Virus record (IMG/VR): IMGVR_UViG_2585427793_000008
Source of the DNA: a virus
Taxonomy: Duplodnaviria > Heunggongvirae > Uroviricota > Caudoviricetes
DNA: 20,647 bases
Reading direction: 5' to 3' (one strand)
Made by a program: the position numbers and the translations under genes. Below, piece by piece: positions 2,605-18,237 of this stretch. The notes beneath the pieces are model-generated. The model saw nothing but the letters and a program-made list of their open reading frames with translations, had not been told where the DNA came from and searched no databases. Position 1 is the stretch's first letter. Every line of letters starts with the position of its first letter.

Positions 2605-3654
2605 TCAAACGATTAAATCCTGAACTTCCCTGACTGTCTGCTCAAAACGTCCGGTCTCCAGCTCAACACCAATCGCACGACGCCCCAGTGCCATCGCCGC
2701 TTTTACCGTTGAACCTGAACCCATAAAAAAATCTGCAACCAGGTCTCCCGGACGACTGCTCGCGTTGATTATCTGCTGCAGCATTTCTGCCGGTTTTTCG
2801 CACGGATGTTTTCCTGGATAGTACTGCACCGGTTTATGCGTCCAGACATCGGTGTACGGAACCTGCGCCGTCACACCGAAATACCGCCGCAAATTTTTAT
2901 ATTCACTCAGCAGTTCCGTATACTGCCGGTTCAGCTCACTGTATGTGCTGACCAGCTGGTGGTGTGGCTTTTCCAGTTCCCCGCGCTGATGTTTTTCTGC
3001 CGCAACACGCGCAAACAACGCCTGCAATTTGTTGTAATCACCCTCGTTCGGTAACTGCCACTGACTGGTACCAAACCAGTGCGAAGCCATGTTTTTCTTT
3101 CCGGTGGCTTCCGCTATCTGTTTTGACGTTATTCCCAGTGATTTACGCGCATCACGAAAGTAAGAAATCAGCGGGGCCATGACGTGCTGTTTTAGCTCGC
3201 GCCCCTGTGCCACATAGCCATCATCTTTCGGGCGATACGGTCCCTGATAATGTTCTGCAAACAGAATGCGCTCTGTTGCCGGAAAATACGCCCGCAGACT
3301 TTCCTTATTGCACCCGTTCCAGCGTCCGGACGGCTTCGCCCAGATAATGTGGTTCAGCACATTAAAGCGCTCACGCATCATGATTTCGGTGTCAGATGCC
3401 AGGCGATGACCACAGAACAGGTAAAGACTTCCGGCAGGCTTCAGTCCCCGCCAGAACTGCGCCAGACACTGGTCCAGCCATTTCAGGTAATCATCGTCGC
3501 CCTTCCACTGGTTATCCCAGCCCTCGGGCTTCACTTTAAAGTATGGCGGGTCTGTGACTATCAGATCGACAGAATTTTCCGGTAAGGTCTGGATAAATTC
3601 CAGGCAATCAGCGTTGATTAACTCACAACTGGATATTTTTACAGTATTGGTCAT
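2605..3654 (-). CDS. Orphan DNA methyltransferase, beta-class (N6-adenine or N4-cytosine), 349 aa
   Basis: N-terminal SVDLIVTDPPY (motif IV) precedes C-terminal DFFMGSGST (motif I FxGxG); no adjacent restriction endonuclease gene. Confidence 0.85.
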   Translation of the reverse strand: MTNTVKISSCELINADCLEFIQTLPENSVDLIVTDPPYFKVKPEGWDNQWKGDDDYLKWLDQCLAQFWRGLKPAGSLYLFCGHRLASDTEIMMRERFNVLNHIIWAKPSGRWNGCNKESLRAYFPATERILFAEHYQGPYRPKDDGYVAQGRELKQHVMAPLISYFRDARKSLGITSKQIAEATGKKNMASHWFGTSQWQLPNEGDYNKLQALFARVAAEKHQRGELEKPHHQLVSTYSELNRQYTELLSEYKNLRRYFGVTAQVPYTDVWTHKPVQYYPGKHPCEKPAEMLQQIINASSRPGDLVADFFMGSGSTVKAAMALGRRAIGVELETGRFEQTVREVQDLIV

Positions 3655-3790: not shown

Positions 3791-3818
3791 AAATTAAAAA
3801 GCCTTCACTGCGGAAGGC
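3791..3818 (-). terminator. Intrinsic terminator-like hairpin overlapping the stop of the small ORF upstream of the methyltransferase
   Basis: Minus strand stem GCCTTC/GAAGGC (3801-3818) followed by UUUUUAAUUUG. Confidence 0.4.
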
Positions 3819-4012
3819 GTCTGTAACAACCGAACTGATAATCTGCCAGACCCGCCATAACAAGCTGAGTCAGTATTAACTGGCAGCGTTCGCGTGAAAG
3901 GTAAGTATTCTGCGCAATTTCCCCGACGGTCGCCGGTTCGGTGACGCTTAATTCATTAAACACCACTCTGGCGGTTTCGGTCATATCCTGCTGTTTTAGC
4001 ATGCCTTTTTCC
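3805..4012 (-). CDS. Small protein, 68 aa, unknown function (possible helix-turn-helix)
   Basis: ATG 4012..4010 with AGGGAAAAAGG SD region; lies between two minus-strand terminators. Confidence 0.4.
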
Positions 4013-4123
4013 CTTTTCTGGTTAACGTGACATACCAATACCTCTTGTCGAAAAAGCCAGCAAGCTGAAAGACCAGTATTCACAACAACCAGCGCGTTTA
4101 ATGTTCTGTGCCGTTTTTCAGGC

Positions 4124-4150
4124 ATAAAAAAACCCGCATAAAGCGGGTTC
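4124..4150 (-). terminator. Strong intrinsic terminator downstream of the ATPase/TOPRIM cassette (candidate tR-prime-like)
   Basis: Minus strand AACCCGC-UUUAU-GCGGGUU followed by UUUUUUUAUGCC. Confidence 0.6.
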
Positions 4151-4284
4151 TTTCAGGTGTCCATGTCTGCTATTCGCCTCGCGGTATAGCTTTGCGAAGC
4201 GTAGCTGGATTGAAACAGTTTATTGGCAAAAAATCAAGACATTTTACAAACAAAAACAATCAACTGAACAAAAAAGAAAATAAA

Positions 4285-4818
4285 TCATCTTGTTAACCTG
4301 AAATGTTTAGAAAAAGATGACTTAAAACTTGCAACAGGCTCCAATACAGTATGTAAATCTCTTGTAAACCACTTAGTTTCCTGCATGCCCATTTTCAGTA
4401 ACTTTGAAAGTTGATTGTTACAAGCAATAAAATCTCTCTTGAAATCATTTATACCCGATGTTTTTTTTGCACAGAACCCAGCAATTAGTTTTTTTACAGG
4501 AATTCCGCAACACCAGGCCAACTCCTCCTCAAAATTTCTTTTCTGCTGCAAAAGATAAACTTTATGCCCTCTGTTTTTAAGGAACTTTACATTTTCAATG
4601 AATCTTGCAGATTGCTCCACTTCATCACTATCAAAGACAATTAGTATATCACTTCCCTTCGGAATAGTAATCGCATAATTTCTTATGCTCTCTTGCCAAA
4701 AGTTTCTTTTTACAATTGATTTGGCATCAATAACTCTCTGTTGTTTCATCTTCTGAAAAAGAGAGTTTTCTGTTTCACCTTCGACAAAAATTATTCTTAT
4801 TTTAGACAACCCCGCCAT
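4285..4818 (-). CDS. Small TOPRIM-like protein, 177 aa (RloB/AbiLii- or DUF4276-like), second gene of candidate defence cassette
   Basis: N-terminal RIIFVEGETE (conserved Glu) and ILIVFDSDE (DxD) match the TOPRIM catalytic pattern; ATG overlaps ATPase stop (TGATG); AT-rich. Confidence 0.6.
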   Translation of the reverse strand: MAGLSKIRIIFVEGETENSLFQKMKQQRVIDAKSIVKRNFWQESIRNYAITIPKGSDILIVFDSDEVEQSARFIENVKFLKNRGHKVYLLQQKRNFEEELAWCCGIPVKKLIAGFCAKKTSGINDFKRDFIACNNQLSKLLKMGMQETKWFTRDLHTVLEPVASFKSSFSKHFRLTR

Positions 4819-6008
4819 CAGAGTAGCTCCGATACTAATGATGTGTCAGGTAAGACACCAAAGACATCTCTCTCAACAGCGTTTCGCATGCTACGGTCAT
4901 TTTTTTTAACAACTGAATTTGCTTCAACAAACTCCGAATAGTCTTTCGTTTTTTTAATAAAAATGAACGAGTGAACAGGCAGATCCAACTCAAAAATATC
5001 CATGTTATGCGTTGTATAGAAAAACTGAGTATTTTCTTTCAAATTAGATATAATCAGCGCCACAATCATACGCTCTAACTCTGAATGTGTATAAGCCAAT
5101 TTCTCGTCAAGAAAATAAGTCATTGATGGTATTAGAGATTGCTTACCTAGTCTTTCACAATCAGAGATAATAGCGCTTATAAAATGCGCTACCGTCACTG
5201 CCTCGTATGTTCCTCGAGAAAGACGGTCTGAGTTAATTATTTCACCTTTACTGGTAACGACAAGAGAATCAGAGTTTTTAAATTTAATCAGATAAACCGC
5301 AGATGATTTATTTTCATCCCCGTCACTTTCAGACTCCAGCATCTCGGTAACTCCTATAATACTTGAATCGAAAGTGCGAATTATCCTTTCAAGAATATTT
5401 TTATTCATTCCTGAAATTGCAGTGGTACTTTCTTTAGTTTCAGACAACAAATAGTACCATCCACCAAAAAACTTAAGTTGCTTGAAAAACTCCAATACAA
5501 CTGGTTCGCTATCAGTAGCTAGTTCCTGAAAAAAATATTCTGTATCTCCTGGGGCCCTTCCAGAAAAGAGTTGATTCAGTTTTTCTGTGGTTTTATAGCA
5601 AGAATCATTTAATGCTATTTGAACAAAACCATATTTAATTTCTTTGATTATGTGCGCTCCGCCTTCACTGGTAGCAAAGCGTACATACAAACGATGATGA
5701 AAATGTTCCTCCGTAGCAAAGTCTACTTCAAACGAAGCATCATTATTTTTATTATTCACTCGCAGATTACTCCGCAACTCTTTGGTTCTTAGAAACACCT
5801 GAATTCCACAAAGAATTCGCCCTAGTGACGTCTTACCTGAAGCATTTCCCCCCGTTATGATACAGACTTTTTTATAGTAAAATTTAGGCCGTCCAGCCAA
5901 AAACTCCCCATCAAGAGGCATGTTTACAGGTTTCCTTGGATAGGACAGGTTAAGCTCTGCATCCTCAAAAGCGTACAAATTGATAAATCTCAATCGTGTA
6001 AATATCAT
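4818..6008 (-). CDS. ABC-type (AAA_21/AAA_15-like) ATPase, about 396 aa, first gene of candidate defence cassette
   Basis: Walker A CIITGGNASGKTS, Walker B SMTYFLDE, H-loop FFYTTHNMD. Preferred start ATG 6008..6006 (GGAAG upstream; N-terminal RLRFINLYAFEDAEL strand typical of this ATPase class); ORF also open to ATG 6098, overlapping Q stop. Confidence 0.7.
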   Translation of the reverse strand: MIFTRLRFINLYAFEDAELNLSYPRKPVNMPLDGEFLAGRPKFYYKKVCIITGGNASGKTSLGRILCGIQVFLRTKELRSNLRVNNKNNDASFEVDFATEEHFHHRLYVRFATSEGGAHIIKEIKYGFVQIALNDSCYKTTEKLNQLFSGRAPGDTEYFFQELATDSEPVVLEFFKQLKFFGGWYYLLSETKESTTAISGMNKNILERIIRTFDSSIIGVTEMLESESDGDENKSSAVYLIKFKNSDSLVVTSKGEIINSDRLSRGTYEAVTVAHFISAIISDCERLGKQSLIPSMTYFLDEKLAYTHSELERMIVALIISNLKENTQFFYTTHNMDIFELDLPVHSFIFIKKTKDYSEFVEANSVVKKNDRSMRNAVERDVFGVLPDTSLVSELL

Positions 6009-6039
6009 TCTTATCTTCCATATGTTGGAACTTAACGTA

Positions 6040-6068
6040 AGTATTGTCCAGACCTTGATGAACGTCAA
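6040..6068 (-). promoter_or_regulatory. Candidate sigma70 promoter for the ATPase/TOPRIM cassette
   Basis: Minus strand TTGACG (6068..6063), 17-nt spacer, AATACT (6045..6040); just downstream of Q stop, about 30 nt upstream of ATG 6008. Confidence 0.3.
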
Positions 6069-6097
6069 CAAGATTGATAGCTGATGCACTTCTATCA

Positions 6098-6655
6098 TCA
6101 GTTATCAGAAAAGCACCGAAGTGCCACGCACATTGGAAGGAAAAGCATGGTTTCAGCCATCGCCAACCAAACATCAATGCGATTTCTACAAGTTTTCAGG
6201 CTCCAGTCAGGGTGATTCTTTTTTAACTGTTCTGCCATTTTCAGCTTGCTCATTCCCAGCCCTTCATATCTTTGTCGGAGGATACAAATCAATCCCGGAT
6301 GCTCTGCCAACACTTCACTAATTACCCGATCGATACATAACGCCTCGGCATCAGTACAATAAGCCAGCCCGCTCTTTTGCTTGCTGTTGATCATCTCACG
6401 CAAAAACGCTTCCAGCTCAGTTTTATCAATCCCTGATTTTTTTATTCTGCGCAGAGCTTCATTGATCGCAGTTTTTGTAAGTGTTTTGGATGCCAGCAAC
6501 TGATTGAACATATTTCCTGGTTTGCCACCACCTATGTACGACCAACGCCCCCACATCCGTAATTTCCCCTGGATCCAGACGGCTTCCAGCGTTTTTAGAC
6601 GTAAATGCTCGCCGCTTTTGCCTGTAATTTCCGGGTATATCATATTTACGATCAC
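6098..6655 (-). CDS. Q-like late antiterminator (phage 82 / quuD-type family)
   Basis: WGRW motif near N-terminus, CTDAEALCIDRV and RQRYEGLGMSKLKMAEQL segments resemble recalled Q82-type antiterminators; position after RusA and before late region. GTG 6655 overlaps RusA stop; alternative ATG 6643. Confidence 0.5.
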   Translation of the reverse strand: MIVNMIYPEITGKSGEHLRLKTLEAVWIQGKLRMWGRWSYIGGGKPGNMFNQLLASKTLTKTAINEALRRIKKSGIDKTELEAFLREMINSKQKSGLAYCTDAEALCIDRVISEVLAEHPGLICILRQRYEGLGMSKLKMAEQLKKNHPDWSLKTCRNRIDVWLAMAETMLFLPMCVALRCFSDN

Positions 6656-7011
6656 TCACTCTCAATTTTGTAAATCTTCACGCCCAGCCGCCCCCCTGGA
6701 ACGAGCTGACCGCGCACAATATTAATTTCATCAAACTGCTCGTCGTCTATGAGCAGCCCTGCATGTGTCAGTGCATCCAGTGGTGCTTTCAGGATATTGT
6801 CCAGGTCACGACGACGTTTATCCGGTGGCTCTGCAATAATCTTTATCGCCAGCCGTCCGGACAGGTTTAATTTCAGTCGCTGCTGGCGAACAATAAGCGC
6901 CACATCACGGCGATAACGCTCACCGGCTTTTGATACAAAATATGTGTTGTCACGACGTCGCCAGTAGGTGTTCACCGTTGGCGGGTAAGGCAAAACAAAC
7001 TCTATACGCAT
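6652..7011 (-). CDS. rusA: RusA Holliday junction resolvase
   Basis: 119 aa; MRIEFVLPYPPTVNTYW... with DLDN and LIDDEQFDE acidic motifs characteristic of RusA; ATG at 7011..7009. Confidence 0.9.
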   Translation of the reverse strand: MRIEFVLPYPPTVNTYWRRRDNTYFVSKAGERYRRDVALIVRQQRLKLNLSGRLAIKIIAEPPDKRRRDLDNILKAPLDALTHAGLLIDDEQFDEINIVRGQLVPGGRLGVKIYKIESE

Positions 7012-7023
7012 CAGTAACCTCTT

Positions 7024-11420: not shown

Positions 11421-11641
11421 AGAACACCTCCCTGGCGTTTAAACATTTTTCCGGACTGAAACACTGCCAGTGGATAGCTAAGGGTATGAGTGCGTCCCTG
11501 AACCTGGCAGACAACCTTCTGACTTTCTGCATTGACCAGGCAAACCCGCAGAACGTGACCGTTGCTGGTGGCAAACCACTGCCCCACGCGGGGGCAACAG
11601 TTGTATCGGTGATACAGGGAATTAACGACGCGGCGAATCAT
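11417..11641 (-). CDS. Hypothetical protein, 74 aa
   Basis: ATG 11641 with GGGAGGTG SD and ATGA overlap with upstream stop; stop overlaps initiator start. Track ORF 11417..11656 uses an upstream ATG. Confidence 0.4.
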   Translation of the reverse strand: MIRRVVNSLYHRYNCCPRVGQWFATSNGHVLRVCLVNAESQKVVCQVQGRTHTLSYPLAVFQSGKMFKRQGGVL

Positions 11642-12300
11642 GGGCGCACCTCCCATTGATTACGGCAGAAAGCGGTAAGATTCAGGCTGTTCTCTGCCTC
11701 ATGGAATGCTTCAATGCAGCTCTCGTAGTACCGCATTGTGCGCAGACTTAACCCAAGCTGAAGCATCATCAGACCATCAAGGGTGATGTAATAACCACGC
11801 AGGGAGTCACCGTAGATGTGATAAGTACCCGGTATGAAATTGCGGGTAAAAAACTCGCGTGAGCAGTTCAGATACTCGATTTTGTCGACGATGTTCTGGT
11901 GCATGCGCTTAAAGTGGCAGGCAACATGCAGGGAGAAAATAACGGCCTTGCCGTTGACAACTTCAATTTTGAGGAATGGGGAAGTTGGGACTGTAGCCAT
12001 GATGGCAGCCTCCGTATGCAATGGATAACTTCCACCACCGGAGCTGCGAAACTCACTGGTGGCAGACTGAACAGGGTTCGCAGTACCGGCGCATACGGAA
12101 ACCGGCGAGCCTTTCGGCTCCCCTGCCCAGCCCACCATAATTCTGGCGTGCGTGAGCGCGGACGATAAAAAAGACGCTGGCGCGCCGTATATCGCCGTAT
12201 GCAATTCCGGGCTGCGACCCCCGGCACCCGCTTTATAAGGTGCGGAGACAGTGTAACGTCCCGAAATTGCAGAATCAATATTTGGTCTTGAAATGATCAT
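11638..12300 (-). CDS. Hypothetical protein; boundaries uncertain (possible real start at ATG 12000 giving 120 aa)
   Basis: 220-aa ORF has a low-complexity Gly/Ala/Ser-rich N-terminal half; internal ATG 12000 has a GGAGG SD 9 nt upstream; a second long ORF overlaps in another frame. Confidence 0.35.
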   Translation of the reverse strand: MIISRPNIDSAISGRYTVSAPYKAGAGGRSPELHTAIYGAPASFLSSALTHARIMVGWAGEPKGSPVSVCAGTANPVQSATSEFRSSGGGSYPLHTEAAIMATVPTSPFLKIEVVNGKAVIFSLHVACHFKRMHQNIVDKIEYLNCSREFFTRNFIPGTYHIYGDSLRGYYITLDGLMMLQLGLSLRTMRYYESCIEAFHEAENSLNLTAFCRNQWEVRP

Positions 12301-12384: not shown

Positions 12385-12410
12385 AGCCGGGTTACTCCCG
12401 GCTTTTTTTT
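12385..12410 (+). terminator. Intrinsic terminator oriented against the early-right operon (plus strand)
   Basis: AGCCGGG-TTACT-CCCGGCT perfect 7-bp stem followed by T8 on plus strand, abutting the Rha-like stop codon; no U-tract on minus strand. Confidence 0.45.
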
Positions 12411-13117
12411 CACCGCTGCCAACCAATAACCTGAAATAACCCCATTTTCGGGTGATACCAGCGAGTCCCTCGCGGTTCTGCTTCCTCCATAACCCGATAA
12501 AAAGCAGCCATAAACGGTTCCACAGCAACAATTGCGCGACGTGACAACAATCCGTCCGGCGTCATGAACTCATGGGTGTCTGTAGGAATCTGATAGGCGT
12601 TCACCAGATTGCGGCATTTATCATCTGACAAACCGGTTTTTGCTTTCAGTTGGCGATATCCGGCATAGCCCTCACGAATAGTGCCCTTTTTAATTTGCTC
12701 GACTGTTTCAGCAACGTGGCTGACTTTTTCTTCCACCTGAGTGATCCGTTTCTGCTGACGAACTGCTTCAAGAGCCATCGCGGCAACCATTTCGATTTCG
12801 CTCATTGGCTTACGGATCTGTTCTTCCAGTTCGCGCCAGCGATCTACCAGGCGAGCAGTGAATTCAGGACAGAGCTGTGCGACGACAATGATGCTGTCGC
12901 GCTTACCTTGTTCTCCTTCAAACAGGTAATGCTCATATTGAACTTTAAAACCTAAGTTATTGATTCTTTCGGAAACCTCAATTTGAGGAGACCGGACAAC
13001 ACCACCTTTGGCTAATGTTTCAATAGTGCGTTTCACATTGTCATGACGTTTACCCACCAGCTCTGCAATTTCAACGCTGGTCATGGATACTTTGCCGTTA
13101 AAAATTGCGATGTTCAT
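12410..13117 (-). CDS. Rha-family phage regulatory protein
   Basis: N-terminal MTSVEIAELVGKRHDNVKRTIETL matches the recalled Rha N-terminal motif; ATGA overlap with Cro-like stop. Confidence 0.7.
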   Translation of the reverse strand: MNIAIFNGKVSMTSVEIAELVGKRHDNVKRTIETLAKGGVVRSPQIEVSERINNLGFKVQYEHYLFEGEQGKRDSIIVVAQLCPEFTARLVDRWRELEEQIRKPMSEIEMVAAMALEAVRQQKRITQVEEKVSHVAETVEQIKKGTIREGYAGYRQLKAKTGLSDDKCRNLVNAYQIPTDTHEFMTPDGLLSRRAIVAVEPFMAAFYRVMEEAEPRGTRWYHPKMGLFQVIGWQR

Positions 13118-13404
13118 TGTTTATCTCCTGCGTGTATTCCATCCGCTCTGTGTGGTGAACTTGGATTTAGGCTTTTGCGTAACAAGTTAGGAATTCCATC
13201 TTCAGGGTGAGGATAAAGATCTGGCCTTAAGCCATGAGGCGTAACCTTCCATGCAACTACTTCACATACTCGTAAAACGAAACGAGCAGGAATTGTGCTT
13301 TTTGAAAACCACTGATTCACCGCTTGCGGCGTCACACCAAGATTTCGCGCTATGGCATTTTGCGCAATTAATGCACGAAGTTTGTCGTAATCATTTCCTT
13401 CCAT
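13114..13404 (-). CDS. Cro-like / YdaS-like HTH regulator
   Basis: 96 aa; HTH segment IARNLGVTPQAVNQWFSK; first gene of the minus-strand early operon, divergent from cI. Confidence 0.6.
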   Translation of the reverse strand: MEGNDYDKLRALIAQNAIARNLGVTPQAVNQWFSKSTIPARFVLRVCEVVAWKVTPHGLRPDLYPHPEDGIPNLLRKSLNPSSPHRADGIHAGDKQ

Positions 13405-13537
13405 AACAAAGCACCAATATTAACTTTATAAATCAAGAGTACATCAAGTTTAAATTAACATGCAAGTTACAAAAGGATCGAATACACTAAAATCAAGTAA
13501 AGATTTATCCTTGTAAAGAAACCCACAGGATTTGGTC
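13405..13537. promoter_or_regulatory. Immunity-region divergent promoter/operator interval (pR/pRM/OR analogue)
   Basis: AT-rich 133-bp spacer between divergent cro-like and cI; octamers AAATCAAG (about 13429 and 13490) and ACATCAAG (13441) repeated; AGGA SD before cI ATG. Confidence 0.5.
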
Positions 13538-14227
13538 ATGAAGAACGTCAAAAACACGGAAAATCGAATAGCCGCGATGCTGAAAGCAAAAGGATGGACT
13601 CAGGCTCAACTGGCCCGCAAGTTAGGTGTGAGTGCGCAATCAGTGCAGTACTGGACAACAGGAAAAACATTTCCACGGAGTGATAAGCTCGCGCATTTAT
13701 CAGAGATTAGCGGTTATCCACAATCCTGGTTCTTAGGTGAAGACTCCTCACCAACCTTTTCCTCGCAAGAGAAACACCAGACAAGAACAGATAGCGTCGT
13801 GTTTAATGTCCTTGATGTTGAGTTTAGTTGCGGTGATGGAACTCATGTCCGTGGTGACTTGATAGATGTAGTGCGCTCAATAGAACTTGATCCTGAATAT
13901 GCCCGACGTCTTGTTGGAAATCGGGCATTCAAAAATATAGAAATAGGTAACGCCAGAGGAGACAGTATGGCTCCCACAATCTCACCTGGCGACCTTCTTT
14001 TTCTTGATAAGACAGTAACTTATTTTGATGGCGATGGTATTTATGCATTTTGTTTTGATGGAGAATGCTACGTGAAAAGGCTTCAAAAAATTGGAAGCAA
14101 AATCATGGTGTTATCTGATAACCCCAATTATCAACCATGGAGCATCGAAAAAGAGGGGTTAGCTCTGCTTTATATCCAGTCTAAAGTGATCTCATCAGTA
14201 CCATTCAACATAAACAGATTTGGTTAG
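13538..14227 (+). CDS. CI-type repressor (N-terminal XRE HTH + C-terminal S24 LexA-like peptidase)
   Basis: HTH WTQAQLARKLGVSAQSVQYW; S24 motifs GDSMAPTISPGDLLFLD and YVKRL (Ser-Lys dyad). ATG at 13538; track ORF starts at upstream TTG. Confidence 0.9.
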   Translation: MKNVKNTENRIAAMLKAKGWTQAQLARKLGVSAQSVQYWTTGKTFPRSDKLAHLSEISGYPQSWFLGEDSSPTFSSQEKHQTRTDSVVFNVLDVEFSCGDGTHVRGDLIDVVRSIELDPEYARRLVGNRAFKNIEIGNARGDSMAPTISPGDLLFLDKTVTYFDGDGIYAFCFDGECYVKRLQKIGSKIMVLSDNPNYQPWSIEKEGLALLYIQSKVISSVPFNINRFG

Positions 14228-14239
14228 TCTTTGATTTTA

Positions 14240-14260
14240 ACGGGCTTTGCCCGTTTTTTT
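14240..14260 (+). terminator. Intrinsic terminator after cI
   Basis: CGGGC-TTT-GCCCG followed by T7. Confidence 0.7.
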
Positions 14261-14290
14261 CTGCCTGAAATATACGATATCAATTTTTTC

Positions 14291-14319
14291 TTGACAGGCT
14301 ATTTCCCAAAACATAATAT
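14291..14319 (+). promoter_or_regulatory. Strong sigma70 promoter (pL-like position) with flanking operator-like repeats
   Basis: TTGACA (14291-14296), 17-nt spacer, TAATAT (14314-14319); downstream CTTGATTTGATTCAA contains the reverse complement of the OR octamer AAATCAAG. Confidence 0.6.
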
Positions 14320-14372
14320 CGCACCATCAATTATAACTTGATTTGATTCAATTTAAAATTGTTGGTGGATAT

Positions 14373-14834
14373 ATGAAGACACTAAAAGCAACTCCAGAAA
14401 CAACTAATTTTATCAACTGCGGCTGTGTTACGCTTAAGGGCTTAGAACTTGATTCCTTTGCATTAAATATTGCAAATTTGCTAAGTGCTGTACGCACATT
14501 CCATCTTCTGGATTGTGCTCGCTCAAAGGAACTGGGCATTGAGGTAATGGAATTTATCCATGAATATGCTCTATCTGCTGCTTCTCCTGCGCAACAAAAA
14601 CAATCCTTCCCTGAAAGCTGGCTGGTTAACCTTCGCACCCAACGCGAAGCCTGCGGCTTAACAACCGCCGAACTCGCCAGGCTGCTCGATCTCGATGAAG
14701 AAATTATCATCCAGTGGGAGAGCGGAGAGTATGAACCAACTATCAGTATGCTTATCCCACTGGCAAATATTCTTGGCTGCGATGCGATGTGGCTGTTAAC
14801 TGGCGAAACGGCAGCAAAGGATATCTGCGCATGA
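14373..14834 (+). CDS. Protein with C-terminal XRE-type HTH, 153 aa, unknown N-terminal domain
   Basis: ATG 14373 with GGTGGA SD; C-terminal CGLTTAELARLLDLDEEIIIQWESGEYEPTISMLIPLANILGCDAMWLLTGE is a classic XRE HTH. Confidence 0.5.
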   Translation: MKTLKATPETTNFINCGCVTLKGLELDSFALNIANLLSAVRTFHLLDCARSKELGIEVMEFIHEYALSAASPAQQKQSFPESWLVNLRTQREACGLTTAELARLLDLDEEIIIQWESGEYEPTISMLIPLANILGCDAMWLLTGETAAKDICA

Positions 14835-15073
14835 AAAACTGTAATGCTTACCATATTTGTCTCATTGGTGAATTGCTTGATTTCATACAAAAAAGCACTG
14901 CGCGCAATAATAAAAATATAACATATGGTGATCTGGTAATAATTTCAGAGGATATAAAGAGCATCGCTCTTAAATTCAAGAGCGACGCGAGTATTGATGA
15001 CGCTATTTACGCTTATCTTGCGAAAATAATTGACGGATCCAAAATCCAGCCTCTGGATGAACCTCGTCAGTGA
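14831..15073 (+). CDS. Hypothetical protein, 80 aa, translationally coupled to upstream HTH gene
   Basis: ATG 14831 overlaps upstream stop (ATGA); 3-prime end overlaps convergent minus-strand gene by about 70 bp. Confidence 0.4.
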   Translation: MKNCNAYHICLIGELLDFIQKSTARNNKNITYGDLVIISEDIKSIALKFKSDASIDDAIYAYLAKIIDGSKIQPLDEPRQ

Positions 15074-15230
15074 AAAACTCCTTTGATGAAGATGAGAACT
15101 GCTTCATAAACTTTACTTTATCTTCAGGTGAAACTACCTGACGAATTAATGCGGAGATAGCAACTTTGTGCCAAATTAATTCTTTTTTGAGTTCTGAAAT
15201 CTCTTTTTCGAGTTGCTCTGCGTTAATCAT
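15003..15230 (-). CDS. Hypothetical helical protein, 75 aa
   Basis: ATG 15230..15228 preceded by GGAGG SD; MINAEQLEKEISELKKEL suggests coiled coil; convergent with plus-strand genes. Confidence 0.45.
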   Translation of the reverse strand: MINAEQLEKEISELKKELIWHKVAISALIRQVVSPEDKVKFMKQFSSSSKEFFTDEVHPEAGFWIRQLFSQDKRK

Positions 15231-15409
15231 TTATCCTCCATTGAGAGCTGAATCGAAAATGGGGACCAACACGCGGCTACGTTTGGTCGTGCGCCGGACA
15301 CGGATAAGCATCCGGTAACTGATTATCAATCATTGCGGAAACAGTCTCAATATGAAAACACTTCTGAGACTCGCTATATAGCAGGACATATAAGTCAGCT
15401 GAGGAAGCC

Positions 15410-15775
15410 ATGAAAAAGTTCGAAAACATAACTGTTCTCCATGTTGATGACTTTGATTATACAAACCCGGAACTTCTCCCGGAGGTTGTAAAGGCAATAG
15501 ATGTTGCCGATATAGTGATTAGAGGAAAGAGAATTGTCAAAAACAGGCTCGCATGCACTTCAGAAGCAATGACAGAAACAACCTCACAGCAAGATAATTA
15601 CGAAGGCATTTGTCTGGAGCCTGATTCATTTGCGGTAAATGTTTATCATTTATTGCATGCAACACAGGTATTACATATGTCCAGTAATCACGAAACGAAA
15701 ACACTCGGCAGCGAAATTCTGAATTTTGCATGTGAGTATGCAAAAACTGCTGCCGAAAAAGAATTAGCGCAATAA
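15410..15775 (+). CDS. Hypothetical protein, 121 aa
   Basis: ATG with GAGGAAG SD; no recognisable motif. Confidence 0.5.
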   Translation: MKKFENITVLHVDDFDYTNPELLPEVVKAIDVADIVIRGKRIVKNRLACTSEAMTETTSQQDNYEGICLEPDSFAVNVYHLLHATQVLHMSSNHETKTLGSEILNFACEYAKTAAEKELAQ

Positions 15776-15853
15776 CAACAAATATGCTCTGAACGTTTAT
15801 TGCGGTTTTATCGCCGGGGATTGTTACAATCTTAATCCACAGGAGGCTTTATT

Positions 15854-15973
15854 ATGACTTTTATAAAGAATATGGCATCACACAAGACCGCCTGTCTTAT
15901 TGCACAATACGGTGAAAATTACATGCATATTGCCTGCTTATTTCTGCGTAAAGCATACGGAAATAACAAATGA
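15854..15973 (+). CDS. Small ORF, 39 aa (MTFIKNMASHKTACLIAQYGENYMHIACLFLRKAYGNNK)
   Basis: AGGAGG SD 7 nt upstream of ATG; stop overlaps next gene start (ATGA). Hand-translated, below track cut-off. Confidence 0.3.
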   Translation: MTFIKNMASHKTACLIAQYGENYMHIACLFLRKAYGNNK

Positions 15974-16329
15974 CACATGAACCCATTAATACATATCGTC
16001 GCCGTATAGCTGTTGCAGCACTCCATCGAATAAAACGTAAAACAGGTGGTGATCTGCTTATTGTTGACCTTCTGGATGGGAACATTACGACCATAGAAAT
16101 AACAGAACAGTTTATAAACCAGTTGCTGTTGCGCTTTGAAGACATTACCAGTGGTGAATTGGGTCGAGTGGAGGGTGAAACAGAATTCCGAACTGCATAC
16201 CAGAATGCCATCGGGATTAATCAACATACTGAATACCAGGCTGAAACCGGAAAGTTAATTATAGACAACCTTTTACAAGAGGTTATTGATTACGCGAAAG
16301 AAAAATATATCAGCGGAGGAATTAACTGA
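15970..16329 (+). CDS. Hypothetical protein, 119 aa
   Basis: ATG overlaps upstream small ORF stop; no recognisable motif. Confidence 0.5.
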   Translation: MTHEPINTYRRRIAVAALHRIKRKTGGDLLIVDLLDGNITTIEITEQFINQLLLRFEDITSGELGRVEGETEFRTAYQNAIGINQHTEYQAETGKLIIDNLLQEVIDYAKEKYISGGIN

Positions 16330-16544
16330 TGGCTAATTTATCCCCTGTATCTGTTGTGCACGAAAAAGTGCAGATCGTTATGACAATTGAAAATGGCCTG
16401 GTAACAGATGTCTGCAAAGTCCGCGATGGAGAGCTGATTGCCAGCATGGATACATTCATATGGCTGGCAGAAAGAGCGGGGTATCAGATAACAGCACCTG
16501 CTCAGGAGGAAACCAGTGACATTAACAGCAACGCGAATTCCTGA
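16329..16544 (+). CDS. Hypothetical acidic protein, 71 aa
   Basis: ATG overlaps upstream stop (TGATG); part of a coupled gene string. Confidence 0.45.
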   Translation: MANLSPVSVVHEKVQIVMTIENGLVTDVCKVRDGELIASMDTFIWLAERAGYQITAPAQEETSDINSNANS

Positions 16545-16734
16545 GTGGGTCCACCAGCAGGCGTTGCTGGTCCTGCGGCGGTACAGATGCCGACGTATAT
16601 TCCCGCATCGGATACAGCGCAACGGATATCTCAGTCTGAAGGTTAACCGTCGCTGGCGGCTGTTATCGAAAGACGACGGCCGGAACTGGGAAGTAATGAG
16701 TCATGAACGTTATTCGGGAGAAATAAAGAAATGA
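16516..16734 (+). CDS. Hypothetical basic protein, 72 aa (GTG start)
   Basis: GTG 16516 preceded by AGGAGGA SD; Arg-rich. Confidence 0.4.
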   Translation: MTLTATRIPEWVHQQALLVLRRYRCRRIFPHRIQRNGYLSLKVNRRWRLLSKDDGRNWEVMSHERYSGEIKK

Positions 16735-17123
16735 TCGACAACCGCACCGCCAGCGCCATTGACCAGGCATTACAGAAACATGATACACCCGTCGGCCCGT
16801 TATTTTTTGTAACACATCACGGAAGAACAAAAAAATGCCTCACTCGAAAAACGGCAATTCGTTACCTGGCATTCTTTATGACCACCCGCGCTTTTGAACG
16901 TTCAGGATTCCGACAACGCCATCCTGACAAGCGTTTTATCTTCAACGGGAATGAAATATGGAAACGTGGAGAATCAACCACAGAGTACACCCGCGCACAC
17001 CAGCGAACAATCAGACGACTGCGCAGACTCATCGCCAGGAAACAGTATACAGAAAAATGGTTCAGAAAATATGACACATGGAGCGCCGGATATTACGAAC
17101 TGATGGCAACAAAACCATTCTGA
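16731..17123 (+). CDS. Hypothetical basic protein, 130 aa
   Basis: ATG overlaps upstream stop (ATGA); Arg/Lys-rich C-terminal half. Confidence 0.5.
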   Translation: MIDNRTASAIDQALQKHDTPVGPLFFVTHHGRTKKCLTRKTAIRYLAFFMTTRAFERSGFRQRHPDKRFIFNGNEIWKRGESTTEYTRAHQRTIRRLRRLIARKQYTEKWFRKYDTWSAGYYELMATKPF

Positions 17124-17183
17124 CGTAAACGAAATTAACCATGACGCAATTAAATAAGGCAAGCTGAATACAGCAGGAGGACC

Positions 17184-17372
17184 ATGAACATTTATTTCAG
17201 AATAGTTATATCACTGGCAATTATCGCATGTATTTACGGATTGCTCGTCCCGTTTCTGATATCAATGAAGGATACGGTAGCGGTGATTTCTGGCTTTGCA
17301 CTGACGTTTCTAACCCCGCCATGTATTTATACCATTTATAAGGGGCTTTCTTTCACTAAGGATAAAAGATGA
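17184..17372 (+). CDS. Small membrane protein, 62 aa, two predicted TM helices
   Basis: AGGAGG SD; hydrophobic IVISLAIIACIYGLLVPFLI and AVISGFALTFLTPPCIY; stop overlaps next gene start. Confidence 0.5.
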   Translation: MNIYFRIVISLAIIACIYGLLVPFLISMKDTVAVISGFALTFLTPPCIYTIYKGLSFTKDKR

Positions 17373-18196
17373 AAAAAATTATTTTTTCTTTAGCCATTGT
17401 TCTGCCTGCCATTGGCCTTGTCGGTTGTGATCGTGTTGAGCCTGGTAATGTGGGCATCAAAGTCAACAAACTTGGCGACGACAAAGGCGTCGGTGAAGTG
17501 GTCGGTGTTGGTCGCTACTGGACAGGCTGGAACACTGAAGTTTATATCTTCCCGACCTTTAAGCAGATGAAGACCTACGATGATCCATTCAGTTTCCAGA
17601 TGAGCGATGGAACAACCATTGGTTACCACATCGGAGTAGCCTACAAGGTTGATCCATCCAAAGTTACCACAGTCTTTCAGACCTACCGCAAAGGCGTGGA
17701 CGACATTACCGACACCGACCTGCGCCAGAAGATAGCCGACGCACTCAACCGACTGGCCAGCAAAATGACCACCGACAAATTTATCGACGGCGGCAAGTCT
17801 GAGCTGCTGGATGCAGCTCTTAAAGACATTCAGGAAGAAATGACGCCCATCGGTATTCAGGTAATAAGCCTCTCATATGTGGGTAAGCCGGAATACCCGC
17901 CTACTGTTATCGACAGCATTAATGCCAAAGTCACGGCGAACCAGAAAACTCTGCAACGCGAGCAGGAAGTAAAACAGCGCGAAGCGGAAGCCAACATGTT
18001 GCGCGCGGAAGCTGCCGGACAGGCTGATGCGATTCGCACAAAAGCCCAGGCTGAAGCCGATGCTATTCGTTTACGCGGTGAAGCTCTGCGTCAGAACCCC
18101 GGTGTTATGGAGCTGGAAGCCATCAATAAATGGAACGGCACGCTGCCGCAATACATGACCAGCGGTGCCAATACACCATTTATCCAGGTTAAATAA
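17369..18196 (+). CDS. SPFH/band-7 (prohibitin-like) domain lipoprotein, 275 aa
   Basis: Signal peptide with lipobox AIGLVGC; C-terminal Ala/Glu-rich coiled coil and RQNPGVMELEAI resemble prohibitin/HflK family C-termini. Confidence 0.75.
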   Translation: MKKIIFSLAIVLPAIGLVGCDRVEPGNVGIKVNKLGDDKGVGEVVGVGRYWTGWNTEVYIFPTFKQMKTYDDPFSFQMSDGTTIGYHIGVAYKVDPSKVTTVFQTYRKGVDDITDTDLRQKIADALNRLASKMTTDKFIDGGKSELLDAALKDIQEEMTPIGIQVISLSYVGKPEYPPTVIDSINAKVTANQKTLQREQEVKQREAEANMLRAEAAGQADAIRTKAQAEADAIRLRGEALRQNPGVMELEAINKWNGTLPQYMTSGANTPFIQVK

Positions 18197-18237
18197 CTTA
18201 ATATGCCCGGCAGGCCGTCGGGCTAAGGGAAAAGCAG

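Follow-up and report, generated by a model that had tools for sequence, protein, structure and literature searches.

A divergent AbiL-like pair of ABC ATPase and TOPRIM-like genes behind the Q gene of an Escherichia coli lambdoid prophage, probably a defence system

What is the function of an AT-rich pair of genes lodged behind the antiterminator gene Q of a lambdoid prophage? The question is posed by IMG/VR record IMGVR_UViG_2585427793_000008, a 20,647-nucleotide stretch of Caudoviricetes DNA which is referred to here, at its full length, as the window. The host element is a lambdoid prophage of Escherichia coli, and all genes in the part of the window under study lie on the minus strand. The cassette comprises a gene for an ABC (ATP-binding cassette)-type, AbiLi-like ATPase of 396 amino acids (4818..6008, minus strand), followed by a gene for a putative compact OLD-type TOPRIM protein of 177 amino acids (4285..4818, minus strand), hereafter the partner. 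ABC ATPases combined with TOPRIM domains form a recurrent defence architecture, being fused in P2 Old, GajA of Gabija and the retron OLD proteins (PMC10568477; PMC11464382) and split over two proteins in PARIS, AbiL, MADS3-4 and HEC-01 (PMC11464382; bioRxiv 10.64898/2026.07.10.737580; bioRxiv 10.1101/2024.01.29.577857). Judged from its sequence, the cassette is a divergent AbiL-like split module of this kind and probably a defence system; by analogy with these relatives, the probability that it acts as an anti-phage module is put at roughly 0.7, and far less confidence attaches to any specific nuclease substrate for the partner. The architecture itself is known; the cassette is regarded here as a member of a sister family of AbiL that is compact, widespread and unannotated and that has a conserved control region of its own.

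A preliminary description of this DNA, made from the letters alone, placed the cassette at 4285-6098. The two open reading frames (ORFs) that it had described are indeed present, on the minus strand at 4818..6098 and 4285..4818, with base 4818 common to both in the overlap TGATG, such that the partner starts at the A of the ATPase stop codon. The lower limit of the cassette stands; the upper limit does not, for the ATPase most likely begins at the ATG at 6008. The longest ORF would give 426 amino acids and the later start 396, the latter being preferred because it is the RefSeq choice in strain B7A, because the PHROG match starts at residue 30 of the longest ORF and because homologs of many genera open with MIFTRL.

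All the motifs that the preliminary description had quoted for the two proteins were found, and they are invariant or nearly so in 57 ATPase and 138 partner homologs. In the ATPase, on the minus strand, these are Walker A (GGNASGKT, 5829-5852), a signature-like motif (RLSRGT, 5208-5225), Walker B (TYFLDE, 5103-5120) and the H-loop (TTHN, 5004-5015). Among the 57 homologs, with identity down to 35%, the invariant residues are N55, G58, K59 and T60 of Walker A, R262, S264, G266 and T267 of the signature-like motif, D301 and E302 of Walker B, and T332, H334 and N335 of the H-loop. The best defence model by a wide margin was that of AbiLi in PADLOC (PDLC02335, E 9.6e-26, 88.6 bits, residues 26-420), followed by mad3 (2.6e-11), PDC-M12A, AriA (1.8e-7) and PtuA (P-loop region only, E 2e-3). 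Pfam gave sub-threshold matches to AAA_15 (28.7 bits, gathering score 32.1), AAA_21 (18.9 bits) and SMC_N, and the protein belongs with PHROG 5836 at E 1e-127.

An AlphaFold 2 model of the ATPase, built on the 57-sequence alignment, reached a predicted local distance difference test score (pLDDT) of 86.7 and a predicted template modelling score (pTM) of 0.87, and displays an ABC head with a mostly beta-stranded insert and no long coiled coil. Foldseek placed this model with PtuA of Septu, retron PtuA-like ATPases and the heads of Rad50, SMC, MukB and RecF, at E values of about 1e-9 to 1e-6. On the strength of the modelled ABC head and the nearest solved folds, the larger protein is a complete defence-type ABC ATPase of the Rad50/SMC-like kind. 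The ABC-ATPase call of the preliminary description is thus upheld by the AbiLi score, by the AAA_15 match below threshold and by the Foldseek matches to PtuA, the retron ATPases, Rad50 and SMC at about 1e-9. Profile searches of the ATPase and partner families against PDB sequences returned nothing significant.

The partner carries, also on the minus strand, EGETE (E13/E17, 4768-4782), DSD (D63xD65, 4624-4632), N95-F-E-E-E99 (4522-4536) and K127 (4438-4440). Among the 138 relatives, whose mean column identity is 24%, only G14 and D65 are strictly invariant, and at least 90% conservation is found for E13, E17, N39, D63, N76, Q92, N95, E97, E99, F126 and K127. The protein stays below the recognition level of every curated library: RloB (PF13707) reached 16.2 bits where its gathering score is 31.5, OLD-like_TOPRIM reached 14.6 bits where 23.2 would be needed, and AbiLii (PDLC02337) was the sole PADLOC model to respond, at E 1.7e-3 and 17 bits. 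The NCBIfam scan gave nothing relevant; DUF4435 (PF14491) found no match in the partner at E <= 1 or in the 138 relatives at E <= 1e-3, and no HNH match to the partner arose in the Pfam and PADLOC scans. PHROG 10204, to which the partner belongs at E 3e-99, is listed as 'unknown function'. The caution of the preliminary description that the exact family was unresolved and might be divergent was well placed, given that the partner falls below the curated RloB and AbiLii thresholds and has no DUF4435.

When the 138 relatives were scanned one by one, 38 matched AbiLii at E <= 1e-3 (best 5.9e-7), and single relatives matched the retron model ATPase-Toprim_I-B (1.2e-7), GajA, HEC-01B, OLD-like_TOPRIM, OLD-like_TOPRIM_1 and RloB; two matched DUF3226 weakly, and there were isolated matches to the unrelated CARF, MAGE and Thioredoxin_15. 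In an hhalign comparison, 141 columns of the partner family profile could be aligned (E 3.2e-4) with the C-terminal 199 residues of P2 Old, in a register that sets VEGETE on VEGKTE and VFDTD on ILADCD. The AlphaFold 2 model of the partner (pLDDT 89.3, pTM 0.85) runs beta1(8-12)-alpha-beta2(34-37)-alpha-beta3(57-63)-alpha-beta4(86-92) and then into helices. E13 follows beta1 directly, D63xD65 lies where beta3 ends, and N95-F-E-E-E99 opens the helix that comes after beta4. This strand and helix order is TOPRIM-like.

The two-metal site of the Burkholderia OLD protein BpOLD has been defined by mutation as E400, E404, D455, D457, T506, E508 and K562 (PMC6755086). Counterparts stand in the partner in the same order, E13/E17 for E400/E404, D63/D65 for D455/D457, N95-x-E97 for T506-x-E508 and K127 for K562 (PMC6755086), so that the OLD set of Glu, Glu at +4, DxD, T/NxE and Lys is present at the order and secondary-structure positions seen in BpOLD. 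Taken together, the modelled topology, the matches to TOPRIM families, the P2 Old alignment and the BpOLD residue order point to a putative OLD-type TOPRIM nuclease that looks like a compacted version of the OLD C-terminal region. The TOPRIM call made at first sight, on the Glu and DxD signature, is in this way extended to a pattern of E/ExxxE, DxD, NxE and K, in company with the AlphaFold 2 topology, the weak TOPRIM-clan matches and the P2 Old alignment.

One set of results is a weakness of the TOPRIM call. Searches of the PDB with the partner model did not rank TOPRIM structures first and gave no specific nuclease placement, which would agree with the proposal that the ATPase itself executes the response, for instance by depleting nucleotides or by binding DNA or protein, and that the TOPRIM-fold partner is a regulatory or adaptor subunit. 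There is a precedent in the E. coli Class 1 OLD protein YbjD, in which the Toprim domain has been described as dispensable and the ATPase as essential for the phenotype (PMC13261556). However, the acidic residues and the lysine of the OLD two-metal set are at least 90% conserved in 138 divergent relatives, a pattern to be expected from selection on catalysis (PMC6755086), and an ATPase effector is accordingly considered decidedly unlikely.

A second alternative would make of the pair a recombination or replication accessory of the prophage life cycle, in the manner of RecF/RecR or SbcCD. The ABC ATPase RecF cooperates with RecR, itself a small TOPRIM protein; RusA and DUF968, recombination genes of the nin region, are neighbours of the cassette; and the cassette ATPase has weak RecF matches (NCBIfam, E 0.016; Foldseek to 5z69, 1.7e-6). 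Yet the partner family aligns with E. coli RecR at E 0.13 over 16 columns only, as against 3.2e-4 and 141 columns for P2 Old, no RecR family appears among its Pfam matches, and RecF/RecR-type membership was rejected on this comparison. Copies are also present at chromosomal sites outside phages and in the defence hotspot of P2, and hundreds of prophages that are otherwise nearly identical do without the cassette, so that the phage life cycle does not depend on it. Such a role is judged highly improbable.

If the two proteins form a single system, their genes should travel together, and so they do. Related loci were collected with a narrower family alignment, the broad one being too divergent for a locus search. 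In 14 of 14 distinct loci with upstream DNA (E. coli, Klebsiella, two Erwinia, Oligella, Actinobacillus, Acinetobacter, a sponge-associated metagenome-assembled genome, Fusobacterium, Clostridiales and four viral contigs), an ATPase of the same family lies immediately upstream of the partner gene, at a spacing of -80 to +6 nt. The pairwise identities of the ATPases follow those of the partners, with a Pearson r of 0.92 over 91 comparisons that are not independent of one another. By gene order and co-variation of sequence, the two genes are one unit with obligate pairing.

The family is large. An exhaustive profile search for the partner recovered at least 620 clusters at 50% identity with E <= 1e-3, including 383 with E <= 1e-10, and nearly all members measure about 160-195 amino acids; an indexed search recovered 959 clusters at 90% identity, the best 120 of which are listed with neither a precomputed Pfam domain nor an informative name. 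Proteobacteria, Firmicutes and Fusobacteria are represented, and Pfam has no model for the family. With no such model and with marginal PADLOC scores, loci of this type may be missed or half-called by defence annotation. The literature consulted, namely that on the RefSeq accessions, an E. coli functional-selection screen, the P2/P4 hotspots, the HEC/PDC candidates and a recent domain-centric screen, yielded no experimental test of the cassette family.

The contexts of the homologs are those of mobile cargo and, in part, of defence. In Klebsiella, the homologous pair belongs to a P2-like prophage, where it is flanked by the portal gene and the replication gene gpA, in the old/tin slot of P2, a site that is a recognised defence hotspot (PMC9519451; PMC9122126). 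The viral lambdoid contig L026 has the same cassette in its nin region, about 2 kb upstream of Q, and its Q is followed directly by the post-Q block described below. Further copies adjoin a prophage integrase gene or lie in chromosomal islands, where methyltransferase/Vsr or UvrD-like genes are their neighbours. No match to the cassette was obtained in 50,697 phage genomes (INPHARED; megablast and tblastn). Plasmid searches found the pair on one Acinetobacter plasmid only, and tblastn from the cassette family did not find a homolog on lactococcal plasmids. In Oligella urethralis (L007 1-5706), three pairs of an ATPase and a small gene are arrayed in tandem next to an insertion sequence element, consisting of 427 and 145 amino acids, of a 190-amino-acid ATPase fragment with 166 amino acids, and of 395 and 173 amino acids. 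The family hidden Markov model matches the third partner only, and the 145- and 166-amino-acid proteins may be further uncharacterised partner types.

To which of the named systems, then, does the cassette stand nearest? The preliminary description had pointed to the architecture of AbiL and PARIS, and this holds for the split ATPase and TOPRIM arrangement, with AbiL as the closest relative, but not for membership in PARIS or in canonical AbiL. AbiL confers abortive infection in Lactococcus and has been grouped with PARIS as an ATPase and TOPRIM system (PMC13064643; PMC11464382). As in AbiL of Lactococcus lactis, the operon is AT-rich, its two genes are co-oriented and an ABC ATPase precedes a TOPRIM/OLD-type protein; AbiLi is the best defence model for the ATPase (E 9.6e-26), which is of the AbiLi type. 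The partner differs in that the AbiLii and RloB models do not recognise it at curated thresholds (E 1.7e-3; 16.2 against 31.5 bits), and it shows remote homology only. The same division recurs across the family: five ATPases, those of Fusobacterium, Clostridiales, Acinetobacter, Klebsiella and Oligella, match AbiLi at E 1e-23 to 1e-28, with uniform scores of 82-97 bits in all clades tested, and for the partners of these five loci the best AbiLii value is 8e-5, some having no AbiLii match. This constant, moderate distance, with ATPases uniformly and partners marginally recognised, suggests a sister family of AbiL rather than core AbiLi/AbiL.

PARIS is likewise a split ABC-ATPase and TOPRIM system, often found on prophages and satellites in hotspots. 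The partner differs from its effector AriB, however, in having no DUF4435 and in its size (177 amino acids as opposed to about 35 kDa), and the ATPase differs from AriA in that AriA models match it weakly (E 1.8e-7 to 2e-5) and its model has no coiled-coil bundle. The detection rule of Rousset et al. asks of AriA at least 32 bits to AAA_15 or at least 27 bits to AAA_21 (PMC9122126), and the ATPase lies below both figures, at 28.7 and 18.9 bits. PARIS membership was rejected on these two grounds, the partner without DUF4435 and the ATPase below the detection thresholds.

Within the OLD family (P2 Old, OLD proteins of Classes 1 and 2, and GajA), the likeness is that of the partner, which aligns with the C-terminal region of P2 Old and keeps the counterparts of the BpOLD site. 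The difference is that OLD proteins hold ATPase and TOPRIM on one polypeptide, whereas the cassette has two genes, split in all 14 loci, and that the catalytic motifs span about 115 residues in the partner (E13-K127) as against about 160 in BpOLD (E400-K562). A strict OLD protein of Class 1 or 2 was rejected as an assignment, the two ORFs being separate and divided by a stop codon.

PtuA of Septu and the retron PtuA-like ATPases provide the closest solved folds to the ATPase and are also paired with a separate nuclease, but that nuclease in Septu and in type I-A retrons is an HNH protein, which the partner is not; Septu membership was rejected because the partner has no HNH match. HEC-01, a Hma-embedded candidate, gave no defence in the published assay (bioRxiv 10.1101/2024.01.29.577857). 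It has the same two-protein architecture, one partner relative weakly matches HEC-01B and some related ATPases match HEC-01A, although these matches are marginal (E 1e-4 to 1e-3).

The manner in which the cassette came to its place is visible in the composition and in the relatives that are without it. With a G+C content of 0.36 (0.31 at third codon positions, GC3), against 0.50-0.52 (GC3 0.48-0.56) in the flanks, the cassette is as AT-rich as it had been judged by eye. It is present in 7 of 5,426 complete E. coli genomes; parts of the 4.5-kb region match 2,536 of the 5,426, the two flanks being matched in 631 and 2,536 genomes. A 2.2-kb stretch around the cassette is identical at 100% to the chromosomes of EC24, CB209 and JNE21-009 and at 99.5% to that of B7A, an enterotoxigenic strain.

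The segment missing from cassette-free prophages is 4246..6199 (G+C 0.362), which includes the last approximately 34 codons of Q. In blastn comparisons with two loci where the site is empty (L002 and L003), homology stops at 4245 and resumes at about 6200-6230, inside those last codons. The last 34 or so codons of Q (about 6098-6200) are unlike those of cassette-free relatives, and the rest of Q is about 91% identical. Q is nevertheless full-length, spanning positions 1-175 of the 176 in the DUF1133 profile. From the differing last codons of Q, the cassette seems to have been acquired by recombination with a breakpoint inside this gene. Compared with its copies in L026 and L016, the window cassette is homologous at the DNA level from 6075 or 6050 down to 4300 or 4334, and the mobile unit therefore extends from just upstream of the -35 element described below to the end of the second gene. 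The cassette is most likely a horizontally acquired moron of the lambdoid prophage.

Immediately beyond the missing segment lies a conserved post-Q block of the prophage backbone (4125..4245, minus strand), which holds a promoter-like element, TTGATT-17-TTCAAT (4237-4209, minus strand), and an intrinsic terminator with a 13-bp stem (4153-4125, minus strand), the region folding with z = -4.0. More than 600 E. coli genomes have this block directly behind Q, at about 98% identity, and in phages with an empty site the gap from Q to the block (window 4245-4125) is 0-70 nt. Its position alone makes it a plausible candidate for the late promoter and leader terminator on which Q acts, an analogue of PR'/tR'. 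The 'Q-to-lysis hotspot' of the preliminary description is thus right in setting the cassette after Q and imprecise in its second term, for the cassette sits between Q and this block. Lambdoid prophages of pathogenic E. coli thereby gain one more place for cargo, the point between Q and the block. The cassette puts 1.9 kb between Q and the block, which raises the question of an effect on Q loading or late-gene timing.

The cassette appears to be provided with its own means of expression. Upstream of the ATPase, in the 89-nt gap between the Q stop codon and the ATPase start, a promoter-like element, TTGACG-17 nt-AATACT, is predicted at 6040..6068 on the minus strand, with 9 of 12 consensus matches. 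Equivalent -35/-10 or extended -10 elements were found at the same relative position in L026, L027, L016, L018, L004, L013 and L031, and these homologous promoter-like elements stand upstream of the ATPase in unrelated contexts. Between promoter and gene, 7 nt before the ATPase ATG, lies the inverted repeat TTCCA-ACATA-TGGAA (6016..6030, minus strand), with GGAAG of the 3' arm being the likely Shine-Dalgarno sequence; the window holds a single TTCCA-N3-5-TGGAA, where 0.09 would be expected.

Across Proteobacteria, nine distinct loci with otherwise unrelated surroundings have the palindrome 4-10 nt upstream of the ATPase start, its arms being invariant and its loops variable: besides the window copy, it stands at L004 3982-3996, L013 2717-2731, L016 2789-2803, L017 2764-2778, L018 2809-2823, L026 4794-4808, L027 4783-4797 and L031 1434-1448. 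Two further proteobacterial loci have a degenerate form, and there is none at the Fusobacterium locus or at the two Firmicutes-type loci (L011 and L032). At the Acinetobacter locus, it pointed to the true TTG start codon of the ATPase. A stable RNA hairpin finds no support, as the folding energies of -3 to -4.8 kcal/mol are no better than those of shuffled sequences (z -0.9 to +0.2) and no covariation was seen. The -10 element ends 7-13 nt before the palindrome, which would therefore cover about +1 to +15, the position of an operator, and could be an autoregulatory operator, an element that occludes the Shine-Dalgarno sequence, or both. As a concrete regulatory element linked to the cassette, the palindrome is a new observation. 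Promoter and palindrome together argue for an autonomous, tightly controlled unit, as expected of a moron that is expressed in the lysogen.

A conserved palindrome at an operator position is also typical of autoregulated toxin-antitoxin (TA) operons, and the control region thus bears on a third alternative, in which the pair would be an addiction module, with the TOPRIM nuclease as toxin and the ATPase as antitoxin, that mainly keeps the prophage or the cassette in the genome. The tightly coupled, overlapping genes are in line with this, as is the mobile, AT-rich and sporadic nature of the cassette, and behaviour of the type II TA kind has been ascribed to PARIS (PMC13064643). Such behaviour and defence are, however, not mutually exclusive, as AbiE and PARIS illustrate; the cassette is found in recognised defence hotspots, and a 400-amino-acid ABC ATPase with all its catalytic motifs is far above the size of a simple antitoxin and more like a sensor or regulator. 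Genome stabilisation as the main function is therefore judged unlikely.

How an anti-phage module of this composition might work can be sketched on the model of PARIS, in which an AriA hexamer sequesters AriB and releases it on sensing a phage protein, whereupon AriB cleaves tRNA (PMC11464382; PMC12409363). In the lysogen, the cassette would be transcribed from its own sigma-70-type promoter, and the palindrome would keep expression low or autoregulated. By analogy with PARIS and OLD proteins, the 396-amino-acid ATPase would serve as the infection sensor and hold the partner inactive in a complex. The 177-amino-acid partner, a TOPRIM core with a short helical region, would be the nuclease effector, its presumed catalytic set being drawn from conservation and motif order. 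A phage-derived cue may then change the state of the ATPase and so release or activate the nuclease, which might cut tRNA, as AriB does and as has been reported for P2 Old (bioRxiv 10.64898/2026.07.10.737580), or DNA; translation or replication would stop and the infection would abort.

It is tempting to go further and see in these loci a distinct, widespread and unnamed class of split OLD-like immune modules, in which a minimal nuclease of about 175 amino acids works under an AbiLi-like ATPase and the palindrome is an operator bound by the proteins themselves, such that TA-like autoregulation is combined with abortive defence. This wider proposal is tentative and, on present evidence, rather doubtful. 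More speculative still is its extension, by which the effector would be a tRNase and the Arg, Arg and Ile tRNA genes downstream would buffer the lytic cycle of the prophage. Among the split ABC-ATPase and TOPRIM systems, only PARIS is understood mechanistically, and the mechanism of AbiL has been open since 1999. A compact representative native to E. coli (396 and 177 amino acids, its own promoter, about 1.8 kb) offers a way into the mechanism of AbiL, and into whether or not a tRNase is sequestered and released there as in PARIS.

The genes around the cassette run, in 5'-to-3' order on the minus strand, from RusA (6652-7011) through Q, the ATPase and the partner to a small conserved ORF of 106 amino acids (3805-4125), a DNA methyltransferase gene (2605-3654) and three tRNA genes (2306-2555). 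The upstream neighbour, 6098..6655 on the minus strand, is Q as the preliminary description had it, with matches to Pfam DUF1133 (E 8.4e-99), Phage_antitermQ and PHROG 753 (E 1.3e-74). The 106-amino-acid ORF and the methyltransferase were considered as parts of the cassette and rejected, for they belong to the prophage backbone in cassette-free relatives.

The prophage tRNAs, about 2 kb downstream of the partner, are Arg-TCT, Arg-TCG and a tRNA with a CAT anticodon that RefSeq assigns to Ile. The TOPRIM effectors known so far cleave tRNA and can be neutralised by tRNAs of phages. That the cassette is specifically linked to these tRNA genes is unsupported, the same tRNAs being present in prophages without the cassette.

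Elsewhere in the window, 12055-12243 (minus strand) matches the Rfam families of C4 antisense RNA (80 bits) and the Hfq-binding RNA isrK (54 bits), adjoining an Ash-family/Rha-domain ORF (11638-12300) and a Rha-family ORF (12410-13117); the region looks like an antisense immunity or anti-repressor control module of the P1/P7 type in a lambdoid prophage. A second AT-rich stretch at 13200-18200 is the immunity region and encodes a CI-like repressor with helix-turn-helix (HTH) and S24 peptidase domains (13532-14224), an HTH protein (14343-14831), an SPFH/Band-7 protein (17369-18193) and several small ORFs without a family match; PADLOC found no defence model in 13200-18200 beyond generic HTH regions. 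In the B7A prophage, a ParD/ParE toxin-antitoxin pair (L001 13384-13946) lies upstream of the DUF968 gene. Homology of this prophage to the window ends at 7015, so that the early regions of the cassette-bearing prophages are mosaic.

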